From: Ignisphaera sp.
GTDB lineage: Archaea; Thermoproteota; Thermoprotei_A; Sulfolobales; Ignisphaeraceae
Assembly: GCA_028275825.1 (NCBI GenBank)
Contig: JAPWTX010000002.1
Coordinates: forward strand, 23,206 to 87,205
Direction: 5' to 3'
DNA length: 64,000 nucleotides
Under the pieces are notes generated by a model. That model was not told the DNA's origin. It saw only the letters and a list, made by a program, of their open reading frames with translations, and did no database searches. A program made the translations under genes and the position numbers. How positions within the stretch are numbered: the stretch's first letter is position 1; the number at the start of each line of letters is the position of its first letter. This document shows positions 9,327 to 51,325 of the stretch, piece after piece.

Positions 9327-9657
9327 AGGGTTTCCCCGAGGCAATTACTTGTAATTAGTTGTGAATCTTGCCTCGGGGTTCCCTGCATTGGGTCGGGTTT
9401 TCATCCCCTCATCTGCAGGGCTATCAGGGCTTCACATAACCCAAGAGCCCCTCATCTGCTTCAGCCCCTTGCCCACACCTTGGGGGCAGCCAGGGGGTTG
9501 CCAAATCCTCATCAATGCTGGTTCACAGGGGTTTTGAAAGCACTAGGTGTTTAACATTGTTATAAGTTTTAGAGGTTTGTGAAAATGTTGCACGGCTAAG
9601 CCAATGCATTTACAGCTATTCACAGGTATATACAGCTGATGCAGATCCAGCCACGGC
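9327..9657 (-). mobile_element. Non-coding repeat family F3, copy a (structured RNA cassette, GCC...GGAAACCC ends)
   Basis: Reverse-complement match to 50983-51325 over about 330 bp; 10-bp-period TA(G/T)CTGT(A/G)AA array at left end. Confidence 0.85.
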
Positions 9658-9750
9658 TTTCTGACTCCAGAGGGTCAAACTCTTGCAAATGATTTTTAGT
9701 GTTAAAGGCTATTTACTGTTTTAGAGCGTTACACATTCTTGGGGCTCTCT

Positions 9751-9906
9751 ATGAGTAAACGCATTACTGTGAGTGAGAGTGTTTTAAGGGCTATTGTTGA
9801 GGGTAGGGTTAGGGTACTGGATAAAAGGATAAAGCTTGGTAAGTACAGAATTGTTAAGAGGTATATTGTTGCAGGTGTTGTTAGTGGCTGTTCGGGTAAA
9901 AGTTAG
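9751..9906 (+). CDS. Possible small basic protein (51 aa; below ORF-track cutoff)
   Basis: ATG at 9751, MSKRITVSESVLRAIVEGRVRVLDKRIKLGKYRIVKRY...; overlaps the next ORF. Confidence 0.3.
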   Translation: MSKRITVSESVLRAIVEGRVRVLDKRIKLGKYRIVKRYIVAGVVSGCSGKS

Positions 9907-10297
9907 AGTCTCACATGGGAGTAGGTCAAAGGTTGTAACAGTTCTTGTTAATGGTGGTGCTGAGAGTGAGGAACCTGTAATTGTTTTAAGACCTGAGGAT
10001 GCGTTAGAGCTTGGCACATCTTTAGAGAATTTTGATGTGATTGAAGTTGAGTTAGCAACTGGTATTAGTAGGAGCCTTATCTCTAGAGATAAGGTAAAGG
10101 TTGAGTTACTAGATGAAAGAGGGAATACCCTGTCCTACACTTACGCATACCTAGTTGTTGATGAAGGTCTTACAGAGCCTTTAATAACGGATGCAACAAT
10201 TGATGAACTTGGGATACAAGTGGTTAGCTTTAGGAGGGGTCTGTGGAGGCATAGGAATGACCCTCCAGATATGTTTAGGTCTAGTGCTTTGAGGTAG
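9836..10297 (+). CDS. Clan AA aspartic-protease-like fold protein with Asn in place of catalytic Asp; true start probably near 9880
   Basis: VTVLVNGGAE (cf. DTG motif), LRPEDALELG, LITDATIDELGI pattern of retropepsin-like archaeal proteins. Confidence 0.65.
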   Translation: MVSTELLRGILLQVLLVAVRVKVRVSHGSRSKVVTVLVNGGAESEEPVIVLRPEDALELGTSLENFDVIEVELATGISRSLISRDKVKVELLDERGNTLSYTYAYLVVDEGLTEPLITDATIDELGIQVVSFRRGLWRHRNDPPDMFRSSALR

Positions 10298-10387
10298 GGA
10301 TTTGCTATCCATAGTAGTTTGGAAATTCGGAGAAAAATAAAACAAATACTAAACCTGTAGCAAGAAAAGACCTTTTAATTGTTTATG

Positions 10388-10830
10388 CTAGATCCCCTCC
10401 AAAACCTTCTCCACTTCTTTTTTCACAGTGCTTGAGAATTTTATGTTAAGGTTCTTGTGACACACGATCGCTACTATAGTTGATGGCGACACTCCTCGAC
10501 GCAACATATAAATTATGAATGCATATCTTAGCGAATGAGCTTTTATCCCTAATGTGCAGGTACTTATCGTCATTAGCCCTGATAACATCCTTGTCTTTAT
10601 CAATTAACGCTGTGCAGATAGTGAGATCCTCTTCAACAATCTCCTTAGGAATTACCATTAATCGATAATCATCCTTCTTGCGCTTCTCAACTTCTACATA
10701 TATCTTGATTTTTGGTTTCTTCAGAAACTCCTTGAATGCCTTGATCGCCTCACCTACGGGATTCGTTTCGAAGAACAGTTTACTTATAGCAAGATCTGAT
10801 GGAGATTTTATAGGTAGGTAGAAAGTATCC
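10388..10830 (-). pseudogene. Frameshifted tyrosine recombinase/integrase
   Basis: Three frames on the minus strand: LRNESR / GEAIKAFKEF...RLMVIPKE / HSLRYAF...GVSPSTIVAIVCHK; the terminal catalytic Tyr segment is not intact. Confidence 0.8.
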
Positions 10831-11243
10831 TCAATATTTATGCTACTCTCGATCGGTATATTAATTTTACAGCGTCTTCAATGATAACACCATCGTTTTG
10901 GCGTAGATAGTCACTTATGCTACCCTAGATCTCTAAACATGTATATCTGAACTAAACACTAATAACAATTTTGTGCCTATGCCTTATCTCTTCATTATAG
11001 CTGTTATAACGAATAAACTTAAAATAGTTTCACAAAATATACATACATAATCATGAATATAGGTGTTGTAAATGAGCATCCCAAGATCAAGTAGATATCA
11101 ATTGTTACCACATTGCGCTACACACGCTAAAGATTTGATCATTGTAGCTACATGTGATGGTGCTTCAAGTACTGGGCAAATAGCTGACCTCCTCCCCGCC
11201 CTAAAGGGCGAGGGTTCCTGCGAGGGCGGTTCACAGGTTCCCC

Positions 11244-12404
11244 TCATCTATTCGGGGCTACATCTGTCATTTGAGGGGCATTCAGGGGGGTCAGAGCTCC
11301 CCACATCTTGATTAAAGCCCTCTTCTCAATGTTTAGTACTGCTACAGTATCTCTATTGGCTTCGAAACCGCATCTAGAGCACCTCAATCTTCTATAGCCG
11401 TTCTCGATAAGCTTAGAGCTACACATTGGGCATGTTGATGATGTGTTCTTTGGGTCTACAACAATTAGTGGCACCCCATTTTTCTCGCACTGCCAGTCAA
11501 TCCAATGCTCCAACATTCTATAGCTTAGTATTAACAGAGAGACTCTGTGTTCCTTTGGAAGCTTCCTAAGACTCTCTACCAAATTTGTCAAGTCCTCTCT
11601 AGCAACTGCATATTGATACTGCTTTGCTAGAGACACAATTGTATGGGATACCTTCTTAACACAGTCTTCAACAATGTTCCTAGCCTTTCTGTGGAAATAT
11701 CTCCTCCTCTCTACAATGCCTCTCCTCCTAAGCCAAGCGTTGTATTTGGGGGAGGAGTACCTCTTTTGGAGGTTCTCAGCTAATTGTTTATAATGCAGAG
11801 CTCTTCTAACAGCTGTTTCAAACCTATATTCAATTTTACCATTACCGATAACAATCTGCCTCTCGTTAATATCAACAGCTAGAATGCCTCTAGGTATATA
11901 CTTAGCTGGCTTGAGTACACGCTTAGATATCCCTAGAATGAACTTGCCATCCTTAAATAACAGTATTGCATCTCCATTTGGATAATTGTCATATCTCATG
12001 TCCCAGCCAATAATCCTGAGCCTAAAGCCTCCAAGAATCTCAACATAGCTATCTCTAACCCTGTAGCTGTATCTATGTGTTAGCCAAATCCTAGGTGTTC
12101 TAGCCCTAGGCACCCTACCCCTATTAGGATTCCCAAGCCAAGACTTGGCAATTGCAATAGCCTCTCTATAACAATCCTGAGCAACTTTAGAAGGAAGACC
12201 ATACCTCTCCTTAAGAACGCTGTATAATAGCTTATGGGCTTTGCCAAGGCTTAACGCTTTATTCTCGATAACCACCTTAATAGCGTGGTTAAGTGCCTCT
12301 CTATACCTCTTCATCAAGCTTACTAGCTCTTTAAACAAGCTGGGCTCAGGGCTAACCCTCATCTTAATGGTCAGGGTTAGCAAACCCTCACAGCCCAGAG
12401 CCAT
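11244..12404 (-). CDS. tnpB: TnpB RNA-guided nuclease with apparently intact RuvC triad
   Basis: RuvC-I LAVDIN, RuvC-II AREDL, zinc finger CPMC...CSRC, RuvC-III NRDTVAVLN, C-terminal PQMTDVAPNR overlapping the right-end RNA. Confidence 0.95.
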   Translation of the reverse strand: MALGCEGLLTLTIKMRVSPEPSLFKELVSLMKRYREALNHAIKVVIENKALSLGKAHKLLYSVLKERYGLPSKVAQDCYREAIAIAKSWLGNPNRGRVPRARTPRIWLTHRYSYRVRDSYVEILGGFRLRIIGWDMRYDNYPNGDAILLFKDGKFILGISKRVLKPAKYIPRGILAVDINERQIVIGNGKIEYRFETAVRRALHYKQLAENLQKRYSSPKYNAWLRRRGIVERRRYFHRKARNIVEDCVKKVSHTIVSLAKQYQYAVAREDLTNLVESLRKLPKEHRVSLLILSYRMLEHWIDWQCEKNGVPLIVVDPKNTSSTCPMCSSKLIENGYRRLRCSRCGFEANRDTVAVLNIEKRALIKMWGALTPLNAPQMTDVAPNR

Positions 12405-12406
12405 AC

Positions 12407-12529
12407 CTACTCAACCCTGTTCCTAGCTATGTTGACCTTTCTGAAGCAATTTGGGCATGTGGCATAGTACTGCTTTCTCCCCTTGTAGTCCCAGACATAC
12501 CCACACTTGGGGCATTTAAGCTTTACCAA
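12407..12529 (-). CDS. 40-aa zinc-ribbon protein inside the tnpB element (not in ORF track)
   Basis: TTG start after GGTGGT; MVKLKCPKCGYVWDYKGRKQYYATCPNCFRKVNIARNRVE*; stop 2 nt before tnpB ATG. Confidence 0.8.
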   Translation of the reverse strand: MVKLKCPKCGYVWDYKGRKQYYATCPNCFRKVNIARNRVE

Positions 12530-12578
12530 CCGACCACCAACCAACTAGTAGAGAAAAACACCTTATGAGCTTTTCTAT

Positions 12579-12618
<40 letters not shown>

Positions 12619-12908
12619 CTTAAAATTAATGTTTAGTGTGAGGGTTAATGACCAAAAATAATATTAAACACTGACTTCCTACCTGTACTAAAAGGTGTGA
12701 GTCTCCTTAGACTTAGGGTGATTCAGCAATTTTCCACATTATATCAATAGGGATGTTATAAATATTGTTTAATTCGATATTATATGATTTTAAGCTTGTG
12801 AATATGTTTTATTGTTGTCACATTTATTCTATTCTAATCTAGTAGCGTTTTATACTTATCCTGTTGTTCTATGTTTAGAGGATATTTAGTTCGTTATCGT
12901 TATAAATG

Positions 12909-12950
12909 TTTATAACTTGGGGTACTCCAAGTATAGTTGGGGTAGCCCAA
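12909..12950 (+). promoter_or_regulatory. TATA box followed by tandem 14-bp imperfect palindromes
   Basis: TTTATAA at 12909-12915; TTGGGGTACTCCAA at 12917-12930 and TTGGGGTAGCCCAA at 12937-12950. Confidence 0.55.
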
Positions 12951-12953
12951 GCT

Positions 12954-14057
12954 ATGCTGTTCAGTATTAAGCCTAAAGAGAGAAGGGATGAATTATATGA
13001 TTTTGAGAAAGAGTTAGAAGAACTTATGAAAGGTGTTGAGAGAAGTCCTATAACTATTGTAATTGGTATGAGGAGAACTGGTAAAACCTCTCTTCTTAAA
13101 GTTGCTTTAAATGAGCTTGGAAATCCTTATATATATCTAGATACAAGATTTTCTGTTAATCCAACTTACAGAGATTTTATATATATTGTGAAAGAATCTT
13201 TAGAAGATTTTGTGAGAAGGTATAAATCTTTTCGTGAGAAGATAGTTGAGGTTTTAAGTAGTGTTAAAGGTGTATCGATATCTATACCGTTATCTTCTAT
13301 CGACATCTCTTGGAGGGGTGATAATAAGCTAGAGTTTCCAGAGCTTTTCACAGCATTGAATAGTATTGGATCTGAACTTAAGAAGAGTGTTGTTGTAGCT
13401 TTTGATGAAGCTCAAGAGCTTCGGAAAATAACATGGATCGATTTTGTAAGACTTTTTGCATATATCTACGATAATCTAGACTATGTTAAAATAGTGTTAA
13501 CAGGATCTGAAGTTGGTCTTCTCTACAAATTTCTAAGACTAGATAGCGGAGATTCTCCACTCTACGGAAGATACATCCATATCGTATCGACAAGAAGATT
13601 AACACTCGAAGAATCTGTAGATTTTCTTGAGAAAGGTTTTAAAGAAATAGGGATCTCTATAAACAAACAAATTATTGAAGAAGCAGCAAAAACATTTGGA
13701 GGGGTCATAGGTTGGCTTACACTCTTTGGATATAATTGCTACACAAACCCAGATCCATGTTCACAACAGATAGATAAAGTTCTAAAGATAGCTATCAACA
13801 TAGCTAAAAACGAAGTAGAGAACTTCTTGAGAAGTAGAAGAAGTGAAAGATACAAAGCATTGCTAAAAACATTGACTATTGAAAGAAGTTGGAGTGAAAT
13901 AAAGAAAAAACTCGAGGATATCGAAGGTAGAACAATAAACGATAAAACACTTAACGAACTACTAAACACCCTAATTGATCTCTCAATAGTTGAGAAAAAA
14001 GATAATAAATACATAATAGCAGATCCCATTACTAGAAAAGCTATTGAAGAACTTTAA
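12954..14057 (+). CDS. Archaeal ATPase (AAA/COG1672-like) with C-terminal winged helix; start moved from 12906 to ATG 12954
   Basis: MLFSIKPK start, GMRRTGKTS Walker A, AFDEAQEL Walker B, LTGSEVG and PLYGR motifs. Confidence 0.88.
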   Translation: MLFSIKPKERRDELYDFEKELEELMKGVERSPITIVIGMRRTGKTSLLKVALNELGNPYIYLDTRFSVNPTYRDFIYIVKESLEDFVRRYKSFREKIVEVLSSVKGVSISIPLSSIDISWRGDNKLEFPELFTALNSIGSELKKSVVVAFDEAQELRKITWIDFVRLFAYIYDNLDYVKIVLTGSEVGLLYKFLRLDSGDSPLYGRYIHIVSTRRLTLEESVDFLEKGFKEIGISINKQIIEEAAKTFGGVIGWLTLFGYNCYTNPDPCSQQIDKVLKIAINIAKNEVENFLRSRRSERYKALLKTLTIERSWSEIKKKLEDIEGRTINDKTLNELLNTLIDLSIVEKKDNKYIIADPITRKAIEEL

Positions 14058-14197
14058 CCTTCACTAAAGAGAATATTTGAATAATCAGCGATGCAAATTA
14101 TTAACCACTCTAGCCCTAGTAATTCTAATTTAATCTGCCCTAATAATAATAGGATTAAAAGAGATGCAATATCAATCACAGATATTGATGTTGGTAG

Positions 14198-14436
14198 AGC
14201 GTTTCCCTTTGTCCTTAGATGGTCATTCTCTTCATTTCAGGGTTTTAGGACCTCATCTAGGGACTTCCACCTCACCTACAAGCGACTGTTAAGCCCAATG
14301 CCATGGAGCTCTCATCTGAATCTCTGGGTCACCACAGCGTGGGTCATCCGAGAGCTTATAGTGAATGTAGAGTTATTCAAATCCTGCTCTATAGTGCTAA
14401 GCATTCACAGCTATTCACAGATATCTAAACCTATCG
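14198..14436 (-). mobile_element. Non-coding repeat family F4, copy a
   Basis: Reverse-complement similarity to 17087-17343 over the first ~140 bp and at the GGGAAACGCT end; same left-end array as F3. Confidence 0.75.
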
Positions 14437-14733
14437 AAAATTGTAATAGTTTATTTCCCTAGATATTTTTAGTGATCTCCAATTTAAATATTGACCATAA
14501 AGTATTTCCATTATCTTTCATACGCGTAGAATACTAAAAACTATGCAGATATTATCATAAAGTTTTGAGAAGCATTAAATACAAAAACTTTTAGCTCTAA
14601 AGAGAAAAACTATTCCAGAATCTCTATTGAGGTAATTTCACAAATAAACATATAATACTAATCAATTTTCACTAATTCAAAGAGTGATATATAGTGATAA
14701 CTTTGTGTAAAGCAAAGTTAAGCTGATTTCTTT

Positions 14734-15366
14734 TCAGATCTCTCCTTCTGCAATCTTAAAGCTATTCCTTGCGTACCAGTATATCTTCCATATCTCAGGT
14801 ATTTCATGGCAATACTCTTTACATGCTTTTTCTGCTAGTTGTCTAAGTTCTTCAGCTTCTTCATACATTAACTCCTCTTTCTCTATAAGGTACTTCATCC
14901 TCTCTAAATCTTGTTTTGTAAATGGGTTAACTTTATAAGAATGCCTAAACTCCAGGGAATCATATATCCTCCTTATCTCAGCTCTTATAAGTTCTGTAGC
15001 TTCCTTTCTGACAATGGATTCATAACTTAAAACCTCAATTAAGAACTCAGTTGAATGTTTAATACTATGAACAAGATCTGTAAATAATGACAAAAACTTC
15101 CTATCCATACCATCAATTTTCTCACTTAGTTTTTTAACATCTACTTCTAAAGTAGTAACTCTATTTTCTAGCGAACTAACTCTCTCCTCCAACAAACCTA
15201 CTCTTTTATCTACTAACCCTAGTTTTTCATCAATTAAACGAAACCTCCCATCTACTTCTGCAAACCTCTTACCAAGCCAATGAACTATACCAACAACTAC
15301 CCCCAAACCTCCAATACCACCTATAGCTGCTAAGATATTCAAAAGTAAAGCTACATCTACCAACAT
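14734..15366 (-). CDS. Membrane-anchored coiled-coil protein (paREP-like accessory family)
   Basis: N-terminal hydrophobic helix, heptad repeats, C-terminal NPFTKQD...EEAEEL domain. Confidence 0.75.
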   Translation of the reverse strand: MLVDVALLLNILAAIGGIGGLGVVVGIVHWLGKRFAEVDGRFRLIDEKLGLVDKRVGLLEERVSSLENRVTTLEVDVKKLSEKIDGMDRKFLSLFTDLVHSIKHSTEFLIEVLSYESIVRKEATELIRAEIRRIYDSLEFRHSYKVNPFTKQDLERMKYLIEKEELMYEEAEELRQLAEKACKEYCHEIPEIWKIYWYARNSFKIAEGEI

Positions 15367-15579
15367 TTACACTACACGATTATTGAATATGAAACTACTT
15401 ATATTTTTACCTCCTTGCATACTCGTAAAATTCTATACATGATATACAATGGGTATCTCAATATACTTAAACTTTGGGAATTAAAAATAGAATTGTTGTA
15501 GGAGTGGGCAATTTGTCTCAGCTTTTCTAGGTATTTAGGATGGTGCTTGTCTGTCTCGCTCAACAAGTCTTCGTATCTA

Positions 15580-15834
15580 GCCTTTCGCAGCTGTTTCTAG
15601 TTTCATAAAGGTTTGTAAGGTTTGACACTACTAAACATTTTCATGAGATTCCCTGTGAGGGGTGAAGAGCCTGCAAGGGCTCTCCCCAAGGGCAGCAACC
15701 CAAGGTGTGGGGTCCCCGGGGGTGGTTCTGAACGCCCCCAAGGCATATGCAGATCCAAGGAGCGGTGCGGGGGAATAGAGATGATGCGATGAAAAACATC
15801 AAACCACATGAACTTATATGAGAGCTGAACCCCC
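15580..15834 (+). mobile_element. Non-coding repeat family F5, copy a (GCCTTTCG...GAACCCC ends)
   Basis: Reverse-complement match to 37729-37978; left end shared with F6. Confidence 0.85.
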
Positions 15835-15837
15835 TAT

Positions 15838-16980
15838 CTATAGCCTTTTCCTCAGTAGTGCGATAGTGAGTAATGTGATGAGTATTGATACAGCTATTGT
15901 TAAGATTAGTGCTAGTGTACGAATTGTTGATATGTCTTGGCTCAGTGTATCGATGTGTTGAAGTGCCTTTGTATATGCATTGCTGAGCTCTGTATACTTC
16001 TGCTCTAAATCTCTATAATTTTGTTGAAGGTCTGTAAAGCTTGTTGTCAAATTCCTCTGATTGCCTGCAACATCTCTATACATTTTCTCAAGGTTTAACA
16101 CACTCTCATTGATTGTGCTGAGGCTTAGCACAATATCTTTCTGATGAGAAGCAATGCTATTTAATGTGCTTGTTAGTGTCATGTTAATCACTTCATAGCC
16201 TCTTCTTAAAGCGTTGTAGAGTAGAGATAGTTCTTCAAGTCTCTTCTCCACATCACTAAGGCTCTTACTCGTTGTGGTATATGAGGTGTTTAGGTTGAAG
16301 AGAAACTGCTCTAATCTATTTAATCTCTCCACAGCGTTAGTATACATCGTAGTGAGATTTCTATAGTCTCTATAGAGCTGTTCACCCTCTCTAGCAATAG
16401 TTATGTAGGTTGTTGTTAAGTTATTGAAGTTGTCAAGCAGTTTTCTGTAACTATCTCTAAGGGCGTTGAGCTCCTCCTCTAAACTCTTGTACTTCTCTAA
16501 GAGGCTCCTATAGGTCAAGACCCTGACAACCGTCACATTAAATGCTATGTGAGTGTACTGAGCTATGTAACTACCTGTTGAAGGGTTGTAGTAGTTGTAG
16601 AGAGCAGCTATAGTAATTCTTAAGAATCCTTCAGCTCTAGGAGTAACTGAGAATACGTAAGAAAGACTCCTATTAACTCCAAGCACAGTATTGTTTATGA
16701 GTATGCCAGAAACATTAACGCCACACCCATAGACAGCCGCAACAATGTAATTGACATGAATATCTTCAAGAGCTGCAATAGTTAAGAAAATGTTTGTAGA
16801 TGTATTCACAAGAGTCTCATTCGGTGCATCAACCCTGAAGTAGAGATATGGACCCAATAAACCATGCATAGTAGGTAGGCGCTCTGCTAAAGCAGTGTAT
16901 AATGAAAAGATAGTGCTAGCTATAGATACAATAATCAGCATCAACGCCATTGCTACAAGAGGTTTGCAAACCATGGCCAT
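15838..16980 (-). CDS. Secreted, C-terminally anchored coiled-coil protein (S-layer stalk-like architecture)
   Basis: Signal/TM helix, beta-rich domain, long heptad region with many N-x-S/T sequons, C-terminal TM plus RKRL. Confidence 0.8.
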   Translation of the reverse strand: MAMVCKPLVAMALMLIIVSIASTIFSLYTALAERLPTMHGLLGPYLYFRVDAPNETLVNTSTNIFLTIAALEDIHVNYIVAAVYGCGVNVSGILINNTVLGVNRSLSYVFSVTPRAEGFLRITIAALYNYYNPSTGSYIAQYTHIAFNVTVVRVLTYRSLLEKYKSLEEELNALRDSYRKLLDNFNNLTTTYITIAREGEQLYRDYRNLTTMYTNAVERLNRLEQFLFNLNTSYTTTSKSLSDVEKRLEELSLLYNALRRGYEVINMTLTSTLNSIASHQKDIVLSLSTINESVLNLEKMYRDVAGNQRNLTTSFTDLQQNYRDLEQKYTELSNAYTKALQHIDTLSQDISTIRTLALILTIAVSILITLLTIALLRKRL

Positions 16981-17086
16981 GCACTAGAAAAGCTTGACCT
17001 AAAAATGCTTATAACCATTTTTACACGCAACACACTGCGCTTTGATATAGCCCTAAACATTGTCATGAGGCTGTTACAGAGCTGAA

Positions 17087-17343
17087 GATAAGTTTAAATA
17101 TCTGTAAACAGCTGTAAATACTTGGCTCTTAGAGTAATGCTTAAATAACTCTCCACTTTATAATTTCTCGGATGACCCGCACTGCGGTGACATGGAGAAT
17201 CAGATGGGAGCCCAGTGGCGTTGGGCTCGACAGGCACCCATGGAGTGTGGGTGATGCTAGTGAACCCACACAGAGGTGCAACCCCGCTAACGGGATTACA
17301 AATATTTACAAATACCGCCAAGTACCGTTAGCGGGGAAACGCT
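17087..17343 (+). mobile_element. Non-coding repeat family F4, copy b
   Basis: GATAAGTTTAAATATCTGTAAACAGCTGTAAAT left end, TTATAA, GGATGACC-stem-GGTGAC motif, GGGGAAACGCT end. Confidence 0.75.
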
Positions 17344-17429
17344 GCTTAAGACCTCCTCACAAAGCTCCTTGACCTCTTTCACATAGTCATATATAAATGG
17401 GTTTACGAAGACGCTCTAGATATGCTCAC

Positions 17430-17692
17430 AAATGGAAGCCTCGCCTTTTAAGGCGGGGAGGTGCTTTATTGCCACCATAAAATATCTGAACAAAAATTTA
17501 TAAACTTTTTTGCCCCAACACTTGTTTTTGGTGTTGGGCGCGGGCGAGCTTAGCAGGCTATGAGCCTGCACCTCCCCGAAGCTGGCGGCGGGGCCTGAAA
17601 AAATGATGCCACACCCGTGAGGGGCTCCTGATAGGTGAGGGAGAGCCCTAGTGGGTGCAGAACCCTCGCCCTTTAGGGCGGGGAGCCGTCAG
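17430..17692 (+). mobile_element. 263-bp IS200/IS605 MITE (family F2a): left end, TATA, omegaRNA-like region, right end
   Basis: TCAC|AAATGGAAG-hairpin; TTTATAAA; interior matches 50825-50983; GAAC-hairpin-GAGCCGTCAG. Confidence 0.88.
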
Positions 17693-17977
17693 CTTCTACT
17701 CAGCATCGATACTGGCAATAGTTGTTATACTCCACGACGCATTGCTATTATCAGCTCTAAAAGCATGTCTACACCATAACATAGCTAGAAAAGCAATTAC
17801 AAATGTATTATAAGGAATTGCAAATCTTCTACAGATAAAATGTGTCTCTGTAATAAGAGATAGCGTAATAAAACCAAAAGGTGTTGCAATGAGAGTTATA
17901 GGGAAGTTATGTGCCTATGGAGTTAAGTAACTATTATTAGAAATATTGTGGCTTAGGATAAATTAAAAAGTTTTAGG

Positions 17978-18415
17978 TTATTGAGTTTGTGTTGATGTTG
18001 GTGGTTGTTGAGTAGCTAGTGAGGTTGATGGTTTCCAAACTAAACCTAGTATAGCTCCTACCAACCCCAGTATGGCTCCTATAAAGAGCCCTGCACCCAT
18101 TATAAGACCTATAACTGATACAACTAGCACTATTATTGACCAAGTCTTCACATTCCCAGGCACCCCACTATTCATCTGAATGCTACCAACTATCATCAAT
18201 ACACCAAAGATTAAGTGAACCACACCCACAACTATAACCAAACCCCCTAGCCAACCAAACCCCACTATCCCCAAGACAGCCCCACCGAATGCTCCTATAG
18301 CAATAATTACTAAAGCAAATAATACAACCAAGACCCCTCCAATCAATGATAAAACAAATGCCCCAGTAGGTTTCTCCACCACAGTTATCCCTAGGTAGAA
18401 AAGCTTAGAGGTCAT
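17978..18415 (-). CDS. Small Gly-rich multi-pass membrane protein
   Basis: 145 aa, four hydrophobic segments, Thr/Gln-rich tail. Confidence 0.8.
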   Translation of the reverse strand: MTSKLFYLGITVVEKPTGAFVLSLIGGVLVVLFALVIIAIGAFGGAVLGIVGFGWLGGLVIVVGVVHLIFGVLMIVGSIQMNSGVPGNVKTWSIIVLVVSVIGLIMGAGLFIGAILGLVGAILGLVWKPSTSLATQQPPTSTQTQ

Positions 18416-18489: not shown

Positions 18490-18740
18490 ATGAAACCTAA
18501 GGAGGTTTGTAAGAGACTCGGTATTAGCTATGAGGGAGTGTGTTAGGAGGGGTTGGATTAAGCTTGCTGTTCTTGAGAGTGGTAGGTGGAAATCTAGTGA
18601 GGAGGAAATTGAGATTAGCTAGCATAATCAAGCTGAGGAAAGTAGTGCTCTACGCTCGTGCTTCATCGAGCAGTCAGAGAGGTGAGCTGGAAAGTCAGGT
18701 AAAGGATGCGATTATAAAAAGAAGCTGTTTTTGGATCTAG
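18490..18740 (+). pseudogene. tnpA: IS607-family TnpA (HTH plus serine recombinase) remnant, frameshifted
   Basis: MKPKEVCKRLGISY / ECVRRGWIK...LESGRWK / KVVLYARASSSSQRGELESQVK in shifting frames; TAGGTTT/TAGCT/TAGTT repeats at 18440-18472. Confidence 0.85.
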
Positions 18741-18772
18741 GTTATTGAAAGGGCTTTCTGTACAGCGGCAGA

Positions 18773-19087
18773 GGGGTTCGGGTTTCATAGGGTTTGACAT
18801 TGTTTGGTGTCAAGCCCTCTACCCTTGGCTTCACAGCCCTCAGAACCCCTTTCATCGGGGTTCATATCACAGGGCTCCGCCCGCTCGGGGTGACCCCTGC
18901 CCACAGCTCCCCCTCCACCATTTTCTCCGGGTCACTGCTGTAGGGTAACCCCCGCATCCTGGCTCCTCCTCAAACCCACCTCTCTTGGGTCTTCGCGATA
19001 CACCCGCATCTCGAGGCATCTCCCCAATAGGGGAAGTATCAACAAACCTTATAAACCTATATGAAACTAGAAACAGCTACGAAGGGC
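18773..19087 (-). mobile_element. Non-coding repeat family F6, copy a
   Basis: Direct match to 50490-50793 over about 300 bp; left end GCCCTTCGTAGCTGTTTCTAG shared with F5. Confidence 0.88.
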
Positions 19088-24597: not shown

Positions 24598-24603
24598 CTA
24601 GAG

Positions 24604-29177: not shown

Positions 29178-29230
29178 AGAACTATAACCTGTAGATATTT
29201 AAACATTCTACCATGTTCAAGTCTATGTAT

Positions 29231-29275
29231 AGAGCCCAGTATTTACAGCTATTCACAGATATCTAAACTTATCGA
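29231..29275 (-). repeat. Solo left-end remnant of the F3/F4 family
   Basis: ATTTACAGCTATTCACAGATATCTAAACTTATCGA, nearly identical to 14405-14436. Confidence 0.7.
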
Positions 29276-29397
29276 CAAATATGCAACACCTGTGACTTTC
29301 ATTGGCTTTACTTATGTAGAGCACAATAGGCAGATTTCATCCAACAACCATTATTCCTAAAAGACCCTAAAACTTTTTACCTCTAGATAAAAGTGGT

Positions 29398-37728: not shown

Positions 37729-37978
37729 GGGGTTCAGCTCTTATATAGATTCATATTGCTTTATGGTCATAGCCTCATCTCCATTCCCCTGCACTGTTTC
37801 TAGGGTTTGCATATGCCTTGGGGGCGTTCAGAACCACCCCGGGAACCCCACATCTTGGGTTGCTGCCCTTGGGGAGAGCCCTCTACGGCTCTTCGCCCCT
37901 CACAGGGAATCTCATCAAGATGTTTAATAGTGTCAAACCTTATAAACCTGTATGAAACTAGAAACAGCTACGAAAGGC
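37729..37978 (-). mobile_element. Non-coding repeat family F5, copy b
   Basis: Reverse-complement match to 15580-15834. Confidence 0.85.
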
Positions 37979-44367: not shown

Positions 44368-45131
44368 ATAGCATTAAAAGCGTGTTCCTAGTTGCTGAAA
44401 GGGATCTCTATAGATTTTGGCAATCAAAGCAGTGGTTAGCAGGGCAAATAGCCATGAACCTTGCAGATGTATTTATCTTTGCACTTATATTTGGAGGAAT
44501 TGTAAGAAAGGATCTTGTACCAGATTACTTCAAATATGTGACACCAGGTATAGCGTCTCTAGCAACATTTGTAGCTGCATTCTCCATAGGTAGAGAAGTT
44601 GGTATGGAGGTTAGGAGAGATATTGTAGACTATTTACTAGTACTGCCTATGAGTAGACTGGCTTTGGTTATTGGAAGACTGCTTGGAGGGATGTTGAGAG
44701 GACTCTTATATCAACTCACATTCTTAGTACTAGCATCCATCATACTTTCTTCACCAAAGCTAGAACAGTTACCAATTTTGTTTATGACATCAATACTACT
44801 AACATCATCTATGTCAAGCCTTGCGATAGCGGTTTCATCTATAAGCAGGGATTTCAATATTCAGGCAACGTTCAGAGCTATTACATACTACCTCCTATTC
44901 TTTTTCTCCAATGTGTACTACCCAAGGCAGGTATTGATGCTAAGGTTTCCACAGCCAATACCACAAATAGTGAGTGTTTCACCTATCTCCCTAGCAGCAG
45001 ACATCTACAGATGGTGCTTTAACTACTACACATACATAGACTATACAGATCTTGCAATGCTAGCGCTATGGAGTTCAGCACTAATAGTACTGGGATTAGC
45101 AACATATCTAAGAAACCTGACAAAACGTTGA
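44358..45131 (+). CDS. ABC-2 permease
   Basis: Multi-TM; SNVYYP and SPIS motifs. Confidence 0.88.
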   Translation: MEMNSIKSVFLVAERDLYRFWQSKQWLAGQIAMNLADVFIFALIFGGIVRKDLVPDYFKYVTPGIASLATFVAAFSIGREVGMEVRRDIVDYLLVLPMSRLALVIGRLLGGMLRGLLYQLTFLVLASIILSSPKLEQLPILFMTSILLTSSMSSLAIAVSSISRDFNIQATFRAITYYLLFFFSNVYYPRQVLMLRFPQPIPQIVSVSPISLAADIYRWCFNYYTYIDYTDLAMLALWSSALIVLGLATYLRNLTKR

Positions 45132-45323
45132 GTAGCATCAAGAGATACTTAGATAGAATAAAAATTTGTGGGATTTGTAATCATCTTATGTTTTTGTATC
45201 AATAAAAACAGGATAGATATAGAGATTTCAATATTTACAGCAATTGCTATAATTGTGGTTATCCACTATTTGAAGAACTTTTCTACACACACTCAAAAAG
45301 GTCAAAACGGATTGTGGAAATTA

Positions 45324-46634
45324 TTAGAGCCATACCACAAATATTGTTATAGAGGATCTCCCACTACCAACTTTTTCTGCACGTAGCCTAGCAAAAGTGA
45401 ACATCCTTCTCCTGTTATCTAGTTCTATGGATTGTACGGAGCCCGGATCTGATATACCAGAGCTATAGAGTTGCCACCTAACCCTATGTTTCAATTCTAT
45501 TAATGCAGGCTGTCTTGTTACATAGAGACCCCACCTCACTTGCGTTTCACCGTCATTTACTATGTCCATGGCTACAGACTCCCTATCAAGAATTTCAAGA
45601 GGCGGATCTAGCCACATACCATTTCCGGGATCTATGCCCAGCGCTAGTATCCATGTAAGTGGTTTTCTAGGAAATTCTAAAACCTCTATCACAGCTGAGC
45701 CAGCGTAACCTCTCCAATCAACAGCTCCTATAGTTCCCCACAGTGTTGGAAACACATGAGTAGTTTCAAAAAGGCCATATGTTGATGGTCTGTAGTGGAG
45801 TGTTGGTATGTGGGAATATGTTGAGGCTATTCCCCATCTAGGCCTACAATTATAGTCTATGGCTATAACACCACCACCAGCCTCTAAACCAACTACAGTG
45901 AGATTTCCACCAGCTTCAGCAAGCCCCAATCTAAATGCACTATGTGGTTTGTAGAGCCATATTGAATTGGCCTCACCATAACCCTTTGGGCATCTCCACA
46001 CAACTCTGCCATTCTCATCAATTTCATACACACTTCCAATATCAGAGTTCTGTGCAATTATATAATCACCTCCAAAAGAATTGCTATGAATACCGCTAGC
46101 CGTAGCACCAAAGATTTTAGAAATTTTTGCAGCATTACCTATAGGTAAACTCCACTTAATTGCCCCATCGAAGCTCACTTTACGTACAAATCCCCCACTA
46201 CCACCAGAACCATAATCAGATATGATAAAACCCTCTTCAACAGGAACAATATCTTGAGGCCACTCGGCATCTTCTAAACTAAGACTCCATTTCACCCTCT
46301 TTTCATCCCTATCTATTAAAACCCATCTACTCTCCCTATCAGTACATAGAATATCACCAGCTTTACCGCCTATGGCAGGTATGTTATCTAACAGCAAATG
46401 AGCTGTATGGGGATTTGGAATTGTTTTGCCTGGTACAGTTAACTCTTCTTCCACAACGCCCTTAATAACATCATATATTACTACACTAAACCTATTATGG
46501 GGATCTGCCATAACAAGCTTCTCTCTTCCATCCCTCGGATCCACCACATGCTCAGCATAATGAATGGCATAGCCATGTCTATAGAAAAGGACTCTAAATT
46601 TGAAGCCTCCAAAACCGTGAACCACATGCTCCAT
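45324..46634 (-). CDS. Hypothetical protein, probable beta-propeller plus C-terminal beta domain
   Basis: Recurrent (V/I)xW blade ends (KVKWS, AIKWS, VVWR, PRWG); no signal peptide. Confidence 0.7.
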   Translation of the reverse strand: MEHVVHGFGGFKFRVLFYRHGYAIHYAEHVVDPRDGREKLVMADPHNRFSVVIYDVIKGVVEEELTVPGKTIPNPHTAHLLLDNIPAIGGKAGDILCTDRESRWVLIDRDEKRVKWSLSLEDAEWPQDIVPVEEGFIISDYGSGGSGGFVRKVSFDGAIKWSLPIGNAAKISKIFGATASGIHSNSFGGDYIIAQNSDIGSVYEIDENGRVVWRCPKGYGEANSIWLYKPHSAFRLGLAEAGGNLTVVGLEAGGGVIAIDYNCRPRWGIASTYSHIPTLHYRPSTYGLFETTHVFPTLWGTIGAVDWRGYAGSAVIEVLEFPRKPLTWILALGIDPGNGMWLDPPLEILDRESVAMDIVNDGETQVRWGLYVTRQPALIELKHRVRWQLYSSGISDPGSVQSIELDNRRRMFTFARLRAEKVGSGRSSITIFVVWL

Positions 46635-46729
46635 AATATCACAACTTTAGTATTTAGGTAGCATAAGATCTTAAATTAGCGAAAAGTTATAAATCTCGCT
46701 AGAGGCATTTACTAGTTTGGTGCATCTCT

Positions 46730-47044
46730 TTGGGTGTAGTAGAGGCTGTGTTAGCCAATCCCCAAAGCTATGCTATAATGGTGCTACAGTTTCTACTTGG
46801 TTTGGCGCTGGGTTACATATCTGTAAAGGCATTGAAATATATATTAGCATTCATAGCCATACTTGCTCTAGGAACATTTCTATCCATATGGTCCCTTGGG
46901 ACAACACCACAAGATGTTTTGAAAAACGTTGGAATAGCTATAGATGCTGCTAAAGGACTTGCAATAGTGCTAGGCCTAATGACAGTAGGACCAGTATCTA
47001 TAGGATTTATAGTAGGAGCTATAATAGCTTTACTCAAGAAGTAA
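46730..47044 (+). CDS. Small membrane protein (FUN14-like pattern)
   Basis: FLLGLALGYISVKALK motif; three hydrophobic segments. Confidence 0.65.
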   Translation: MGVVEAVLANPQSYAIMVLQFLLGLALGYISVKALKYILAFIAILALGTFLSIWSLGTTPQDVLKNVGIAIDAAKGLAIVLGLMTVGPVSIGFIVGAIIALLKK

Positions 47045-47317
47045 ACCTTTTTCCATTGCTAACCCTCTGCAGAACATAATGAGGTATTATACTTCCTGTT
47101 AGCAGCTATTCATATCAAGTCAAGTCATTATATCCACTACTCCTCAGATAACATATGCAAATCCAAATAGATGCAGAAAACCTATTAACAATGTTAGAAG
47201 AGTCTTCGCTCCTCAAGGGTGGGAGGAGAGAGTAACAAAAACATTATCAGAATAAAGTATTAAAGGTAATTGTGAAACACACTATTTAAGCTAGAAACCT
47301 ATGCGTAGAGCCATTAT

Positions 47318-48649
47318 CTATGCAACTATATAGATTAATGAGTACAGGAGCCATGCTAGTAAAACAGATGTTGCATTGTATATGATACTTACTTTCATGA
47401 AGTCCAAGAACCCAATTTTATAACCATTCTTCTCTAGCATTCTAACAGCCGTTACGTTTGCTGATGCACCTATATATGTGAAGTTCCCACCTAGTGTTAT
47501 GCCTATCAATGCTGCCCACATAAGGATGACAGGATCATGAGATGTTATAGATGACATTGTTTTGACTATTGGTATCATTGTTAGAGTTATTGGCACATTG
47601 TCTATTACAGAAGATAAGGCGACGCACAACCACATTATAACTGATGTTAAGCCGAATATATTGTAGCTGAATTCTTTCACAAGGTATTCTGCAAGTATTT
47701 TTGCAATGCCATGTTTTTCAAAAGCGCCAGATAGTATAAATAATGATGCTAAGAAGATTAGAAGCCTCCATTCAAATCCATGTCTAAATGCCTCCTTAAC
47801 GCTACCCCTATCTCTATGGATAAGCCTGGCAATTGTTATTCCGGAAACAGCTATGAATGCTGAGAAACTTAGTGGTATACTTAAAATATTTCTAAGGCTT
47901 AAAAGAATGATCTTTATAGATAGAAAGAATGCAGCTTCCCACACAAACATCTCATCCAATGACCCTTGAGAATCATATCCAAGCACAGCACGGTCTACAC
48001 CTCTAGAGCTCATGATTCTCGCATTTCTTTTAACTGACAGGTATGCTGATAAAGCTATAGCGACAATCATTGATGCAAGAGTGAAGAAAAACATTGATGG
48101 CTCACCCTTATAAAATATGAAATCAGTAAATGAAAGATTGAAAGCACCAGCTGTAATTAATGCTGGTGGATCTCCAATCATTGTTGCAGACCCAGCGATA
48201 TTAGCTGAAAGCGCCATGAGAATCATTGGTGTTCTAGGATCTATCTCAATGGATCTAGAAATAGTGAAGACAACAGGGTAAAATAATAGCACTACCGACA
48301 CATTCTCCATAAAAATGCTCACTAAGCCTGCTAGTAACGATAGCAGGAACACTGTTGTGTAAGGAGAGCCTTTAGAATGCTTCAATATGTACCTAGCTGC
48401 AAGTGTTGCAAGACCACTTCTCTCTAGATATACCGTGAATATGCCTACGCCTAGTATAAGTCCCAGAACATCCCAATTAACATATTTTATTGCCTCAGAA
48501 GGCGATACAACACCTGTAACCACTAAAACAACTGCTATAGCTAACCCAATCCAATGCCTCTCTATCTTATTCCAGATAAGAAGAGCTATTAAAATGGTGA
48601 GAGATGCTAACACTATAAATGCATCTAGAGTAATCATATTGCACAGCAT
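47318..48649 (-). CDS. ArsB/NhaD/SLC13-type ion or anion permease
   Basis: ENVSVV, SANIAGSATMIGDPP, DNVP, GGNFTYIGASAN motifs. Confidence 0.92.
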   Translation of the reverse strand: MLCNMITLDAFIVLASLTILIALLIWNKIERHWIGLAIAVVLVVTGVVSPSEAIKYVNWDVLGLILGVGIFTVYLERSGLATLAARYILKHSKGSPYTTVFLLSLLAGLVSIFMENVSVVLLFYPVVFTISRSIEIDPRTPMILMALSANIAGSATMIGDPPALITAGAFNLSFTDFIFYKGEPSMFFFTLASMIVAIALSAYLSVKRNARIMSSRGVDRAVLGYDSQGSLDEMFVWEAAFFLSIKIILLSLRNILSIPLSFSAFIAVSGITIARLIHRDRGSVKEAFRHGFEWRLLIFLASLFILSGAFEKHGIAKILAEYLVKEFSYNIFGLTSVIMWLCVALSSVIDNVPITLTMIPIVKTMSSITSHDPVILMWAALIGITLGGNFTYIGASANVTAVRMLEKNGYKIGFLDFMKVSIIYNATSVLLAWLLYSLIYIVA

Positions 48650-48891
48650 TGCAGTCTCTGCAATAAAAGCTTAACTTTGGGCACAAAATTCATAGATTTT
48701 AAAGTTCTTGAATCATATTTATATCAATATGTTTAGAAATGTTACCATTACTCATGAATATATATAGCGTTTTTGATGATAAAAACCCTTCCACAGCACT
48801 TATTGAATAATTCCTCGTCTATTAACACAGTGTTGCTTAGGATATTCATGAATTTGCAGTTAAAGATCATGCTCTTTGGCTAGAAAGCGGC

Positions 48892-50316
48892 TCACATTTG
48901 CTTAATGCATTTAAGCAGCTCTTCCTCATAAATTCTCCTAGGCTCTGCACCTACAATCTTACCATTTACAATTATAGGAACGTGCCTGTATACTGTATGA
49001 ACTACTTTGCTATGCTCATCCAAGTTAATGAGGTGGATCATACTATACCTAGCTAGTTGCTTTTTTGAAAAGAGACCCGAAACAAATTCTACTATCGAAG
49101 CCCCTTTTCGCCTTGCATAAAGCGCCAAGTCTCTAAGTCCTCTATCAATATATCTCGATGGATGATATAGGTAAAGCATTTCAGTACCGTGAAGCAGTAG
49201 AATGTCAGGGTCTCTGTCTATAACCTGTCTAAGGATTCCCATAACCTCGTAACAAGAGTATATAGAGGGATTGACACCCTGCTCAAATTTTATAAGTTCT
49301 TCAACGCTCTTAATGTCTTGACCAAGGCTCTGGGCAATGTGATGTACAAGCCTTTTCATTTCTGAACTAGGCATTCTAAAGCTTAGTAAGGCAAGATAAG
49401 CATTGCTTTTGAGTGCGAGATCCAAAAGCACTTTGAATGTCGTATAGAATACTGGAGCATCCTTCCCTACAACACCTATATATGTGCCACGTGGCATAGG
49501 ACCCCACAGAAGTTCTGAACATGGGGATTCCATGGCAGGCTTTTCAGTAAGTACAGGTATTTCTTCGAGTGGCGGGGATAAAATAATTCTTACCCCCTCA
49601 TCCTCAGCTATGGTGAACGGTATTTCAACTATTGGGATTCTCCTACCTCTAAACTTCCTCACCTCCATGAACCTTGTTATCAAACCTCTTTCAACTCTTG
49701 TCTTAAATACAAATACAGCATCAGCTATGAACTCTAAACCCCTTAGATCCACAGTCTCCTTACCGTAGGGCAGATCAGCAACTAAAATTAAAAGTCCTTG
49801 GGAGCTACGGACAAGATTATAGAGAGTGGCATGAAGATAGGATCTCGCCTCATCAGTTGTTAAGGCATTGAGCAAGGGAGTTACAGAGTCAACTACAGCA
49901 ACTCTAAAACCTTCTGAAACAATCTTTGCACTAAGAACACTTGTAACAGACTCTACAAGATCTTTTCCAGCAAATGTCGGCATGTGAATGAATTCAAATA
50001 TCCCTTTCCTCTCAAGAGTGTCTAGATCTATTCCAAACCTACCCATATACCTAAGAAACTTGTCTCTATCTTCAGCTAGACTCACATAGACACACTTTAC
50101 CCCACCACTCCTACAGTTTCTATAGAGAATCTTAGCAGCAAAGGTTGTCTTGCCAGCACCAGGATGCCCTAAGATGAGAACCATAGAACCCTCATCAAAA
50201 CCCTTTAAAAGCATCTCTAAATTATCCTCACCAATACCAAACACTTTCCAATCACCACCATATATAATGTTGTGTATTAAGTACAACAAATCTGCAAAAA
50301 CTTTTTCTTCTCTCAC
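48892..50316 (-). CDS. KaiC/RAD55-like RecA-superfamily ATPase; second domain degenerate
   Basis: GHPGAGKT, VVDS, EVRKFRG in the N domain; no Walker A in the C domain. Confidence 0.88.
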   Translation of the reverse strand: MREEKVFADLLYLIHNIIYGGDWKVFGIGEDNLEMLLKGFDEGSMVLILGHPGAGKTTFAAKILYRNCRSGGVKCVYVSLAEDRDKFLRYMGRFGIDLDTLERKGIFEFIHMPTFAGKDLVESVTSVLSAKIVSEGFRVAVVDSVTPLLNALTTDEARSYLHATLYNLVRSSQGLLILVADLPYGKETVDLRGLEFIADAVFVFKTRVERGLITRFMEVRKFRGRRIPIVEIPFTIAEDEGVRIILSPPLEEIPVLTEKPAMESPCSELLWGPMPRGTYIGVVGKDAPVFYTTFKVLLDLALKSNAYLALLSFRMPSSEMKRLVHHIAQSLGQDIKSVEELIKFEQGVNPSIYSCYEVMGILRQVIDRDPDILLLHGTEMLYLYHPSRYIDRGLRDLALYARRKGASIVEFVSGLFSKKQLARYSMIHLINLDEHSKVVHTVYRHVPIIVNGKIVGAEPRRIYEEELLKCIKQM

Positions 50317-50431
50317 ATAAAAGTTTTCATCAACAATAAGATATCTCCTATAGTATATGAATTGCTATACCGCTTACTATACGAATTAAAGGTTAAACCC
50401 TCGAATGAGAAAACAGATTTCACCTCTTTGT

Positions 50432-50983
50432 TTGAGGCTTCGCCCTTCAGGATGAAGAGGTTTTTATCAAGAATATCAGCGAGTAGGAAGGGGTTCTGGT
50501 TTCATCGGGCTTGATGTTGTTTGGTATCAAGCCCTCTCCCCTTGGCTTCACAGCCCTCAGAACCCCTCTTCATCAGGATCCATATCACTGGGCTCCACAA
50601 CTCGGGGCGACCCCTACCCACAGCCCCCTTTTCTCCGGGTCACTGCTGTGGGGTAACCCCTGCATCCTGGCTCCTCCTCAAACCCACCTCTCTTGGATCT
50701 TCGCGATATACCCGCATCTCGAGGCATCTCCCCAATAGTGGAGGGATCAACAACCCTTATAACTATATGAAAACCAAAACAGCCGCAAAAGGCTTATGGA
50801 CTTTTGCCTACAGGTAAAAATATTGATGTTGGGTGTAGACGAGTTTAGCAGGCTATGAGCCTGCACCTCCCCGGGGCTAGCGGCAGGGTCTGAAACAGTG
50901 ATGCCGCATCTGTGTGGGCTTCTGATAGATGAGGGAGATCCCATGTGTGCAGAACCTCGCCATTTATAGCGAGGAGCCGTCAG
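50432..50983 (+). mobile_element. Decayed F2 MITE (copy b) interrupted by F6b
   Basis: Degenerate left hairpin near 50432-50460; 50825-50983 matches 17530-17692 and ends GAGCCGTCAG. Confidence 0.7.
50490..50793 (-). mobile_element. Non-coding repeat family F6, copy b
   Basis: Direct match to 18773-19087. Confidence 0.88.
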
Positions 50984-51325
50984 CCGTGGCTGGGTCTGCA
51001 TCAGCTGTACATATCTGTGAATAGCTGTAAATGCATTGGCCTAGCCCTGCAACATTTTCACAAACCTCTAAAGCTTATAACAGTGTTAAACACCTAGTGC
51101 TTTCAAAACCCCTGTGAACCCGCATTGATGAGGGTTCGGCAAACTCAAAGTGCTGCCCCCAAGGTGTGGGCAAGGGGCTGAAGCAGATGAGGGGCTCTTG
51201 GGTTATGTGAAGCCCTGATAGCCCGGGCAGTGATGCTATGAAGAGCCGAACAGAGCCCGGGAACCCCCGGGCAAGATTCACAACTAACTACAGCTAATTA
51301 CAAGTAATTGCCTCGGGGAAACCCT
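50983..51325 (+). mobile_element. Non-coding repeat family F3, copy b
   Basis: Reverse-complement match to 9327-9657, with one extra 10-bp unit near the right end. Confidence 0.85.

Follow-up and report, generated by a model that had tools for sequence, protein, structure and literature searches.

What are non-coding repeats that stand twice each in one archaeal contig, have their ends in common by pairs and differ inside? The question arises from a stretch of 64,000 nt on a contig of Ignisphaera sp. (the window; all coordinates refer to its whole length), in which a first-pass annotation had described four repeat families, F3 to F6, as mobile cassettes with different RNA cargos between common ends. 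Very probably, the four families are non-autonomous, internally deleted miniatures of archaeal insertion sequences (IS) of the IS607 family that have kept their guide-RNA (omegaRNA) ends. A new multi-cargo architecture is not needed: the interiors appear to be remnants of the tnpB genes of their own lineages, and the ends those recognized by the IS607 recombinase.

Copies and anatomy of the repeat families

A repeat search and blastn recovered each of the four families twice, where they had been annotated, with pairwise identities within the families of 76-88 %: 87.5 % over 345 nt for F3 (9327-9658 versus 50982-51325), 76 % over 150 nt for F4 (14286-14435 versus 17087-17233), 86 % for F5 (15580-15833 versus 37729-37978) and 86 % for F6 (18772-19087 versus 50489-50793). 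The copies were delimited as follows; here and below, hyphens set off a core dinucleotide present at both junctions.

9328-9656, minus strand: F3a, IS607-type miniature element of 327 nt plus one copy of the GG/CC core, delimited by an empty site and by homology to full-length F3-type elements; left end CC-GTGGCTGG...CTGTGAATAGCTGTAAAT, TATA at about 9566, first tnpB codons, omegaRNA region, end GGGGAAAC-CC
50984-51324, plus strand: F3b, second F3 copy, 87.5 % identical to F3a, with the right end of the truncated element D4b as its exact insertion point (see below)
14199-14451, minus strand: F4a, miniature element of the F4 type, diverged and degenerate in its outer left end; end AGGGAAAC-GC
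17070-17342, plus strand: F4b, left end GC-TGTTACAG..., TATA at 17157, last ~140 nt of a tnpB-like gene, end GGGGAAAC-GC
15581-15832, plus strand: F5a, left end CC-TTTCGCAGCTGTTTCTAGTTTCATA, TATA-like sequence at 15612, first ~60 and last ~140 nt of tnpB, end GAGAGCTGAAC-CC
37731-37977, minus strand: F5b, second F5 copy, 86 % identical to F5a
18773-19086, minus strand: F6a, miniature element of 312 nt plus core; left end and TATA (19055) as in F5, end CCCGAAC-CC
50488-50792, minus strand: F6b, second F6 copy, 301 nt plus a 4-nt AAGG ambiguity
29228-29288, minus strand: solitary F4-type left-end fragment without interior or right end (repeat search and blastn)

The elements are protein-free, as annotated: intact open reading frames (ORFs) are absent from all copies in the window, and the coding remnants carry frameshifts. 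The interiors have a GC content of 47-55 % in a window of about 40 %; that of F6a is GC-rich over 268 nt and highly structured. The pairing of the families by their ends was borne out. F5 and F6 start with (G)CCYTTCGYAGCTGTTTCTAGTTTCATA, terminate in GAACCCC and are 91-96 % identical over about 45 nt of left end. F3 and F4 both contain ATATCTGTGAATAGCTGTAAAT and have the terminus GGGGAAAC(C/G)C and CTGTGAATAGCTGTAAAT repeats in common. Sub-terminal inverted repeats are present in both end classes, for example ATCTGTGAATAGCTGTAAAT / CATCTGTGAATAGCTGTAATT and CTAGTTTCATATAGG / CCTATATGAGAGCTG (left end versus reverse complement of the right end). A TATA-like sequence had been reported 5' of every GC-rich interior; heptamers were found there in F3a, F3b, F4b, F5b and F6a, those of F3b and F5b lying at 51074 and 37946, and the motif is degenerate in F5a, F6b and F4a. 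As a sequence feature, a promoter-like TATA carried by the elements is supported. The motif AGATGAGGG occurs three times in F3, and one of these copies corresponds to the codons for the TnpB residues Q-M-R-G in full-length relatives. F3a and F3b are 94 % identical in their left parts and differ in the central stem-loop of the omegaRNA, which in F3b is another variant (CCCGGGC/GCCCGGG).

Mobility and junctions

Contigs of the public runs X9, X5 and X16 were placed on the window. X9 is DNA of a closely related organism; X16, a small metatranscriptome of undirected Logan contigs, is the sole RNA run. Exact empty sites in related strains confirmed that the elements are mobile. F3a is missing from X9 and X5 (9327 joined to 9655, 327 nt, 2-nt GG ambiguity), F6a from X5 and the RNA run X16 (18772 joined to 19085, 312 nt, 2-nt GG ambiguity) and F6b from X9 (50487 joined to 50789, 301 nt, 4-nt AAGG ambiguity including the core). 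At these three sites no target-site duplication was present, and both junctions have the same 2-nt core; insertion and excision are precise and duplication-free at this core. IS607 transposition makes no target duplication and leaves the same core dinucleotide at either junction (bioRxiv 10.1101/2023.11.20.567912), thus the junctions show the behaviour of an IS607 serine recombinase. F3, F5 and F6 have CC as their core (GG in the complementary strand), F4 has GC. Left junctions of the F3 type read ...AG-CC-GT(A/G)GC... in 14 of 14 cases, so that AG stands before the core, and right junctions ...GGGGAAAC-CC-. For F5 and F6 the two junctions are ...G-CC-YTTCG... and ...GAAC-CC-, for F4 ...AG-GC-TGTT... 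and ...GGGGAAAC-GC-.

The depth of X9 relative to the single-copy flanks was about 3x for F4b, 7x for F6, 12x for F3 and 22x for F5; the families are therefore multicopy, far beyond the two copies each in the window. [quoted passage not shown] They behave like MITEs, but they are not DDE-type MITEs.

Full-length relatives

Seventy-nine loci (L numbers) were gathered by scanning a genome collection with the F5/F6 left end and metagenomes with the F3/F4 left end; the full-length relatives among them come from metagenome-assembled genomes (MAGs) and metagenomes of hot springs. The genome-collection scan, with an 18-mer, gave mostly chance matches, the relevant loci being L006, L013 and L014 only; a comparison of the F3/F4 end with viral contigs found nothing. 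L014, a MAG of the Desulfurococcaceae, contains at 1808-3305 a 1.5-kb element with the F5 left end, a TnpB of 417 aa (Pfam TNB, E = 2.6e-17) and the end TATGAGAGCTGAACCCC. The alignment to this element, on which the limits of F5a are based, resolves F5 into its left end, ~60 nt from the start of tnpB and the final ~140 nt. In L013, a Methanomethylicota MAG, an IS607 tnpA lies directly downstream of an F5/F6-type left end. Six full-length F3-type elements (L023, L033, L034, L038, L060 and L069) are tnpB-only, 1.55 kb long and encode TnpB proteins with a length of 401-427 aa, those of L023, L033 and L069 having 414 aa; they have a 300-nt leader with a TATA, and the tnpB ORF crosses the sub-terminal repeat and nearly reaches the right end. 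In L052 and L030, F4-type ends bound elements of 2.0 kb that encode a TnpA of 207 aa with Resolvase and helix-turn-helix (HTH) domains (PF00239, 6.5e-24, and HTH_17) and a TnpB homologue of 431 aa. F4b matches these tnpA_S-tnpB elements with 87 % at the left and 77 % at the right end (blastn) and retains the reading of the last ~42 codons of the F4-type TnpB homologue, its tail translating as GSPVALGSTGTHGVW.... For F4a an orthologous locus was found, L049, with 98 % identity.

Each miniature keeps the left end with the sub-terminal recombinase-binding repeats, the TATA of tnpA or tnpB, the first tnpB codons and the last 140-190 nt, which in the full-length element are the 3' coding end of tnpB and the omegaRNA region. 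For its omegaRNA proposal the first-pass annotation had called for full-length tnpB genes with these interiors at the 3' end. Such genes were found for F3, F4b and F5, and with the GC-rich 3' parts homologous to them, the objection that no full-length tnpB exists falls. In these three the homology covers the last 140-160 nt of full-length tnpB elements, up to the right end, which marks the terminal regions as predicted omegaRNAs. Descent from tnpA_S/tnpB elements with the serine recombinase of IS607 is indicated by the F4-type ends and by L013. For the F3-type ends a serine-recombinase TnpA is suggested indirectly, by end motifs in common with the F4 type. The full-length relatives explain the different interiors as what is left of distinct tnpB lineages, and the shared ends as recombinase-recognition ends; the tnpB/omegaRNA lineages would have diverged faster than these ends. 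A tblastn search with the TnpB encoded in the window revealed no remnant of it in F3 to F6, because the families derive from other tnpB lineages.

Autonomous and tnpB-only copies coexist in the close relative sampled by X9. The F3-type tnpB element L060 is covered as a whole at a depth of 300-900 versus ~28-31 for single-copy DNA, corresponding to about 10-25 full-length copies, and loose contig ends at L060 2407-2410 match the deletion junction of the miniature copies. Contigs matching the tnpA_S-tnpB element of L052, most with 0-1 mismatches, have a depth of 28-68 and indicate 1-2 autonomous copies; its ends are 5-17x deeper because of the miniature copies. The window itself contains a relic of the recombinase:

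18490-18740, plus strand: degraded IS607 tnpA adjoining F6a, broken by frameshifts and stops, in which a MerR-type HTH precedes the serine-recombinase sequence ...VVLYARASSSSQRGELESQV (three-frame translation)

This remnant has a 73 % nucleotide match to the tnpA of L013 behind the F5/F6-type left end. F6 occurs widely in hot-spring metagenomes, and its only resemblance to a TnpB tail is a degenerate reading (MRG...SSDP...). The F4-type TnpB homologue (L052:1403-2698, L030) is 25 % identical to F3-type TnpB, has no Pfam match and is devoid of the zinc-finger cysteines; F3-type TnpB likewise has no CxxC pairs. Opposite the FEDLEK of the others the F4-type homologue has VGNINEK, and it may thus have lost the RuvC-II glutamate.

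Retained RNA structure and possible transcription

Alignment of the terminal ~150 nt from 18 F3-type elements, 12 miniature and 6 full-length, gave a common fold of 27 pairs with 96.7 % of the cells paired. The covariation of 0.217 was reached by none of 500 shuffles (0.097) and compares with 0.02-0.09 when the partners were slid; the covariation anticipated in the first-pass annotation is thus significant in the F3 RNA. Within a 7-bp helix, five of the seven pairs have compensatory changes: CCCGGGC/GCCCGGG in F3b, CCCTGCA/TGCAGGG in F3a, and CCCCGCA/TGCGGGG and CTCTGTA/TACAGAG in full-length elements. The scaffold is closed by the long-range stem CCCCGAGGCAA...TTGCCTCGGGG; AAACCC then stands at the boundary, beyond which all flanks diverge. 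Folded as a single sequence, the F3b RNA had a z of -1.6, which is not significant. For F6 the consensus fold reached -88 kcal/mol and the single-sequence fold of F6a a z of -2.9; four compensatory pairs and a replaced terminal hairpin were observed, and the annotated stem GAACCCC/GGGGTTC versus GGATCCT/AGGGTTC reappeared in the consensus fold. An F6-like copy, L084:2405-2686, is alike in the left end and a 190-nt 3' module and has an unrelated, shorter 5' interior; its terminal hairpin is wholly substituted with the complementarity retained. Two other annotated structures fared less well. The F4 hairpin CCGCA-c-TGCGG cannot form as cited, with a loop of 1 nt, and the F5 hairpin GAGCC...GGCTC sits in the N-terminal coding remnant of tnpB. 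In Rfam, F3 to F6 match no family even at E <= 1.

RNA contigs of X16 run past the right ends into the flanks at F3b, at an F6-type copy and at an F4-type copy. Transcription from the retained TATA is plausible.

Possible use of the miniature RNAs

For miniatures of IS607 elements the following cycle can be proposed. The serine recombinase TnpA_S would move the miniatures in trans, by way of a circular dsDNA intermediate. The retained promoter would transcribe the omegaRNA scaffold into the flank, for about 16-20 nt, and thereby yield a locus-specific guide. A TnpB from full-length copies would load the miniature RNA and cut the vacated site (AG-CC plus flank), and homologous repair would then restore the miniature, which in this way would exploit both TnpA and TnpB; the cutting and restoring would follow the published homing model (PMC10055086). 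The use of miniature RNAs by TnpB in trans is plausible. It is a further and rather unlikely step that the protein-free copies, about as many as or more than their tnpB-bearing relatives, are double parasites kept by TnpB-guided homing via their own transcripts, with F6 as a hitchhiker-only omegaRNA lineage on a heterologous TnpB and an F5-type TnpA_S, or as an RNA with another role.

Several observations weigh against the derivation of all four families from IS607 elements or against the use of their RNAs. A parent of F6 did not appear in a tblastx comparison with all fetched loci; a protein-database search with its TnpB-tail-like peptide returned only ORFs of 44-74 aa, which are other miniature copies, and genomic-context look-ups likewise led to other miniature copies only. 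For the partner genes the evidence comes from X9, a close relative in which some insertions are missing, and not from the genome to which the window belongs. With no Pfam match, no cysteines and a possibly lost RuvC-II glutamate, the F4-type TnpB homologue may not support nuclease homing. F4a, with its decayed left end, may be immobile. The compensatory changes in F3 may predate the miniature copies, as a possible inheritance from different full-length ancestors, and so are no proof of selection on the protein-free copies; the consensus fold of the F5-type RNA has conserved stems and zero compensatory changes. The X16 signal is weak and confounded, as its contigs are undirected and any carried-over DNA would enrich for multicopy repeats. 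F5 is not covered at all. The X16 contig across the F3b boundary (51289-51397) is explained by its overlap with a neighbouring small RNA (sRNA) gene:

51351-51407, minus strand: canonical C/D box sRNA gene (GUGAUGA ... CUGA ... UGAUGA ... CUGA), ~25 nt from the right end of F3b

Its Rfam match, to sR14 with 30.6 bits (E = 8e-7), stays under the gathering threshold.

Alternative explanations

These points bear most on whether the RNAs are used at all. F3 to F6 may be inert relics, IS607 deletion derivatives that are or recently were moved by TnpA_S, with omegaRNA remnants unused by TnpB and a structure kept only through youth; we regard this as quite possible, if somewhat doubtful. The copies differ by just 3-24 %, their coding remnants are frameshifted, the left end of F4a has decayed and a lone left end stands at 29228-29288, F5 is without compensatory changes, and the RNA coverage is patchy, with none for F5. 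Mere youth has to be set against the retention of promoter and complete scaffold to the exact right end in four independent families, and against variants of F3 and F6 that preserve helices through multiple double substitutions; stand-alone omegaRNAs have, moreover, been published as functional in trans, according to the summary in PMC10691335.

The cassettes of the first-pass annotation, in which common mobile ends carry exchangeable, unrelated RNA cargos that reprogram a TnpB encoded elsewhere, are very unlikely and largely refuted by the full-length relatives. Some mosaicism exists in the left parts and central stem-loops of F3a and F3b, the F6 variant of L084 has a different 5' interior, and F6 has no known protein-coding parent. 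The interiors of F3, F4b and F5 are, however, collinear with the tnpB start and 3' end of a full-length element with the same ends, as expected of a deletion product, and the common ends are explained by shared recognition by a serine recombinase. Hardly credible are palindrome-associated transposable elements (PATEs) of the IS200/IS605 type, moved as single-stranded DNA by a Y1 (HUH) TnpA: tnpB-only parents are often classed as IS1341/IS605 and one such element with hairpin ends and an HgcC-type RNA (D4a) is present in the window, but F3 to F6 are without the sub-terminal palindromic hairpins of the window's IS605-type element and PATE, their ends match elements encoding a serine recombinase, their junctions have a common 2-nt core, they have no HgcC match in Rfam, and no Y1 tnpA was found between F3-F6-type ends in the full-length relatives examined.

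IS605-type elements and other features of the window

Besides the IS607-derived miniatures, the window holds a separate IS605-type set:

11184-12615, minus strand: intact IS605/IS1341-type tnpB element, ORF 11244-12404, 386 aa, Pfam Cas12f1-like_TNB; boundaries from contig joints
17430-17692, plus strand: D4a, protein-free IS605-type element (PATE) of 263 nt with hairpin ends and an HgcC-like omegaRNA
50823-50983, plus strand: D4b, 5'-truncated D4 copy, 82 % identical to D4a; its right end abuts the left end of F3b
8998-9226, both strands: IS605-type remnants by tRNA-Arg: on the minus strand a truncated 3' end of tnpB including the omegaRNA (8998-9183), on the plus strand a fragment of a right-end hairpin (9191-9226)

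The ORF at 11244-12404 (minus) is the only intact tnpB in the window. The right-end omegaRNA of its element is of the HgcC type and ends ...CGCCCTTTAGGGCGGGGAGGAGGTCAG; Rfam gave HgcC 48 bits at 11171-11304 versus a gathering score of 50. This RNA, the genuine tnpB right-end RNA of the first-pass annotation, a motif of which had been noted in F3 and as variants in F4, thus belongs to another transposon class. Further HgcC matches in the window were confined to 8986-9120, 17572-17705 and 50400-50477, with none in F3 to F6 at E <= 1. The match of D4a (17572-17705) is weak; X16 RNA contigs cover 17473-17693, and X9 has the empty site (17429 joined to 17693). At the tRNA-Arg(CCT) region (8736-9226) the two IS605-type remnants lie 200-500 nt downstream in opposite orientations, and the tnpB 3' remnant still reads ...CNFEVNRDTVAVLGIEKR...APNR.

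The segment 50400-51325 is an insertion hot spot, in which a partial HgcC-like remnant (50400-50477), F6b, the truncated D4b and F3b follow one upon the other. The insertion point of F3b coincides with the junction of right end and guide in D4b (..GTCAG-CC..), thus behind the D4b scaffold the F3 left end has taken the place of the original flank. The idea that F3b re-arms D4b against all F3 copies was dropped, as no consistent motif except AG precedes F3 left ends; for the same reason the insertion at D4b probably reflects a chance AG-CC target. The pattern GAUGA...(stem-loop)...CUGAUAG recurs in F3 (e.g. 51186-51225) and in the right-end RNAs of tnpB and D4 elements. Its likeness to a box C/D-type kink-turn hints that archaeal omegaRNAs may bind L7Ae; in full-length copies these bases are codons for Q-M-R-G...P-D-S.

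A domain search found archaeal ATPase and MCM-type domains among the window proteins. TATA-type promoters and the C/D box sRNA are present as well, and related sequence was found only in hot-spring metagenomes. Exact-protein look-ups gave no identical match for the window tnpB or one other ORF, and a further look-up placed an identical protein in NCBI GCA_028276525.1. Within a coiled-coil ORF (14734-15366, minus), a gene of unknown function, X9 shows a strain-specific indel, with 20 different letters in place of 192 nt (14770-14963).

Relation to known systems and significance

IS607 elements, for instance of C. botulinum (bioRxiv 10.1101/2023.11.20.567912), resemble the families studied here in the TnpA with Resolvase and HTH domains and the TnpB of full-length relatives with the same ends, in the precise insertion and excision without duplication and with the same GG/CC core at both junctions, and in an omegaRNA scaffold overlapping with the 3' end of tnpB and terminating at the right end. 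The window copies differ in that they are without both genes and archaeal, with TATA promoters and clear sub-terminal inverted repeats. The F4 lineage has a GC core, and the target preference in the window is apparently AG-CC, not TGGG. Stand-alone mobilised omegaRNAs acting in trans were described by Altae-Tran et al. 2021 (as summarised in PMC10691335), and PATEs encoding omegaRNAs together with a homing model for TnpB by Meers et al. 2023 (PMC10055086). As far as these accounts go, such elements are likewise protein-free and mobilised, keep ends and omegaRNA, have effector copies in the same genome and follow the same proposed logic of a TnpB supplied in trans. The cases presented there are bacterial IS200/IS605 elements with a Y1 transposase and hairpin ends, whereas F3 to F6 are IS607-derived, archaeal and fuse a promoter to the scaffold.

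A crenarchaeal parallel is offered by an element dependent on ISC1733, which is an IS607-family element. This SMN1 of Sulfolobus islandicus is non-autonomous and 320 bp long (Berkner and Lipps 2007, cited in PMC3718332); it resembles the miniatures as a crenarchaeal, protein-free element of ~300 bp that is moved in trans by a transposase which a full-length IS supplies. It has no sequence relationship to F3 to F6, and the citing account (PMC3718332) describes no omegaRNA in it. From archaea, sense overlapping transcripts (sotRNAs) at the 3' end of IS1341-type tnpB and intergenic RNAs derived from tnpB 3' ends are known (PMC4615843). Like the RNAs of F3 to F6, HgcC (RF00062) and the sotRNAs are GC-rich, derived from tnpB 3' ends in AT-rich hyperthermophiles and found also in protein-free intergenic repeats, but in the window HgcC matches the IS605-type tnpB and D4 elements only and not F3 to F6. 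The IS605-type set of tnpB element, D4a, D4b and remnants corresponds to the classical archaeal PATE/HgcC situation (PMC4615843).

The general concept of a trans-acting stand-alone omegaRNA is already published (PMC10691335; PMC10055086), and no new kind of system is present here. The novelty is modest and lies in archaeal families that stem from IS607 and fuse promoter and scaffold, in defined cores and an AG-CC target preference, in scaffolds absent from Rfam and in the orphan family F6 without known parent. The exact empty sites define the recombination core, and the several archaeal omegaRNA scaffolds missing from Rfam may aid in annotating the GC-rich orphan RNAs of thermophile genomes. 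The window presents a clean natural case in a hyperthermophilic archaeon of miniatures that keep exactly the parts needed to exploit the parental recombinase and RNA-guided nuclease, and thus a tractable system for asking whether TnpB homing maintains non-coding hitchhikers.

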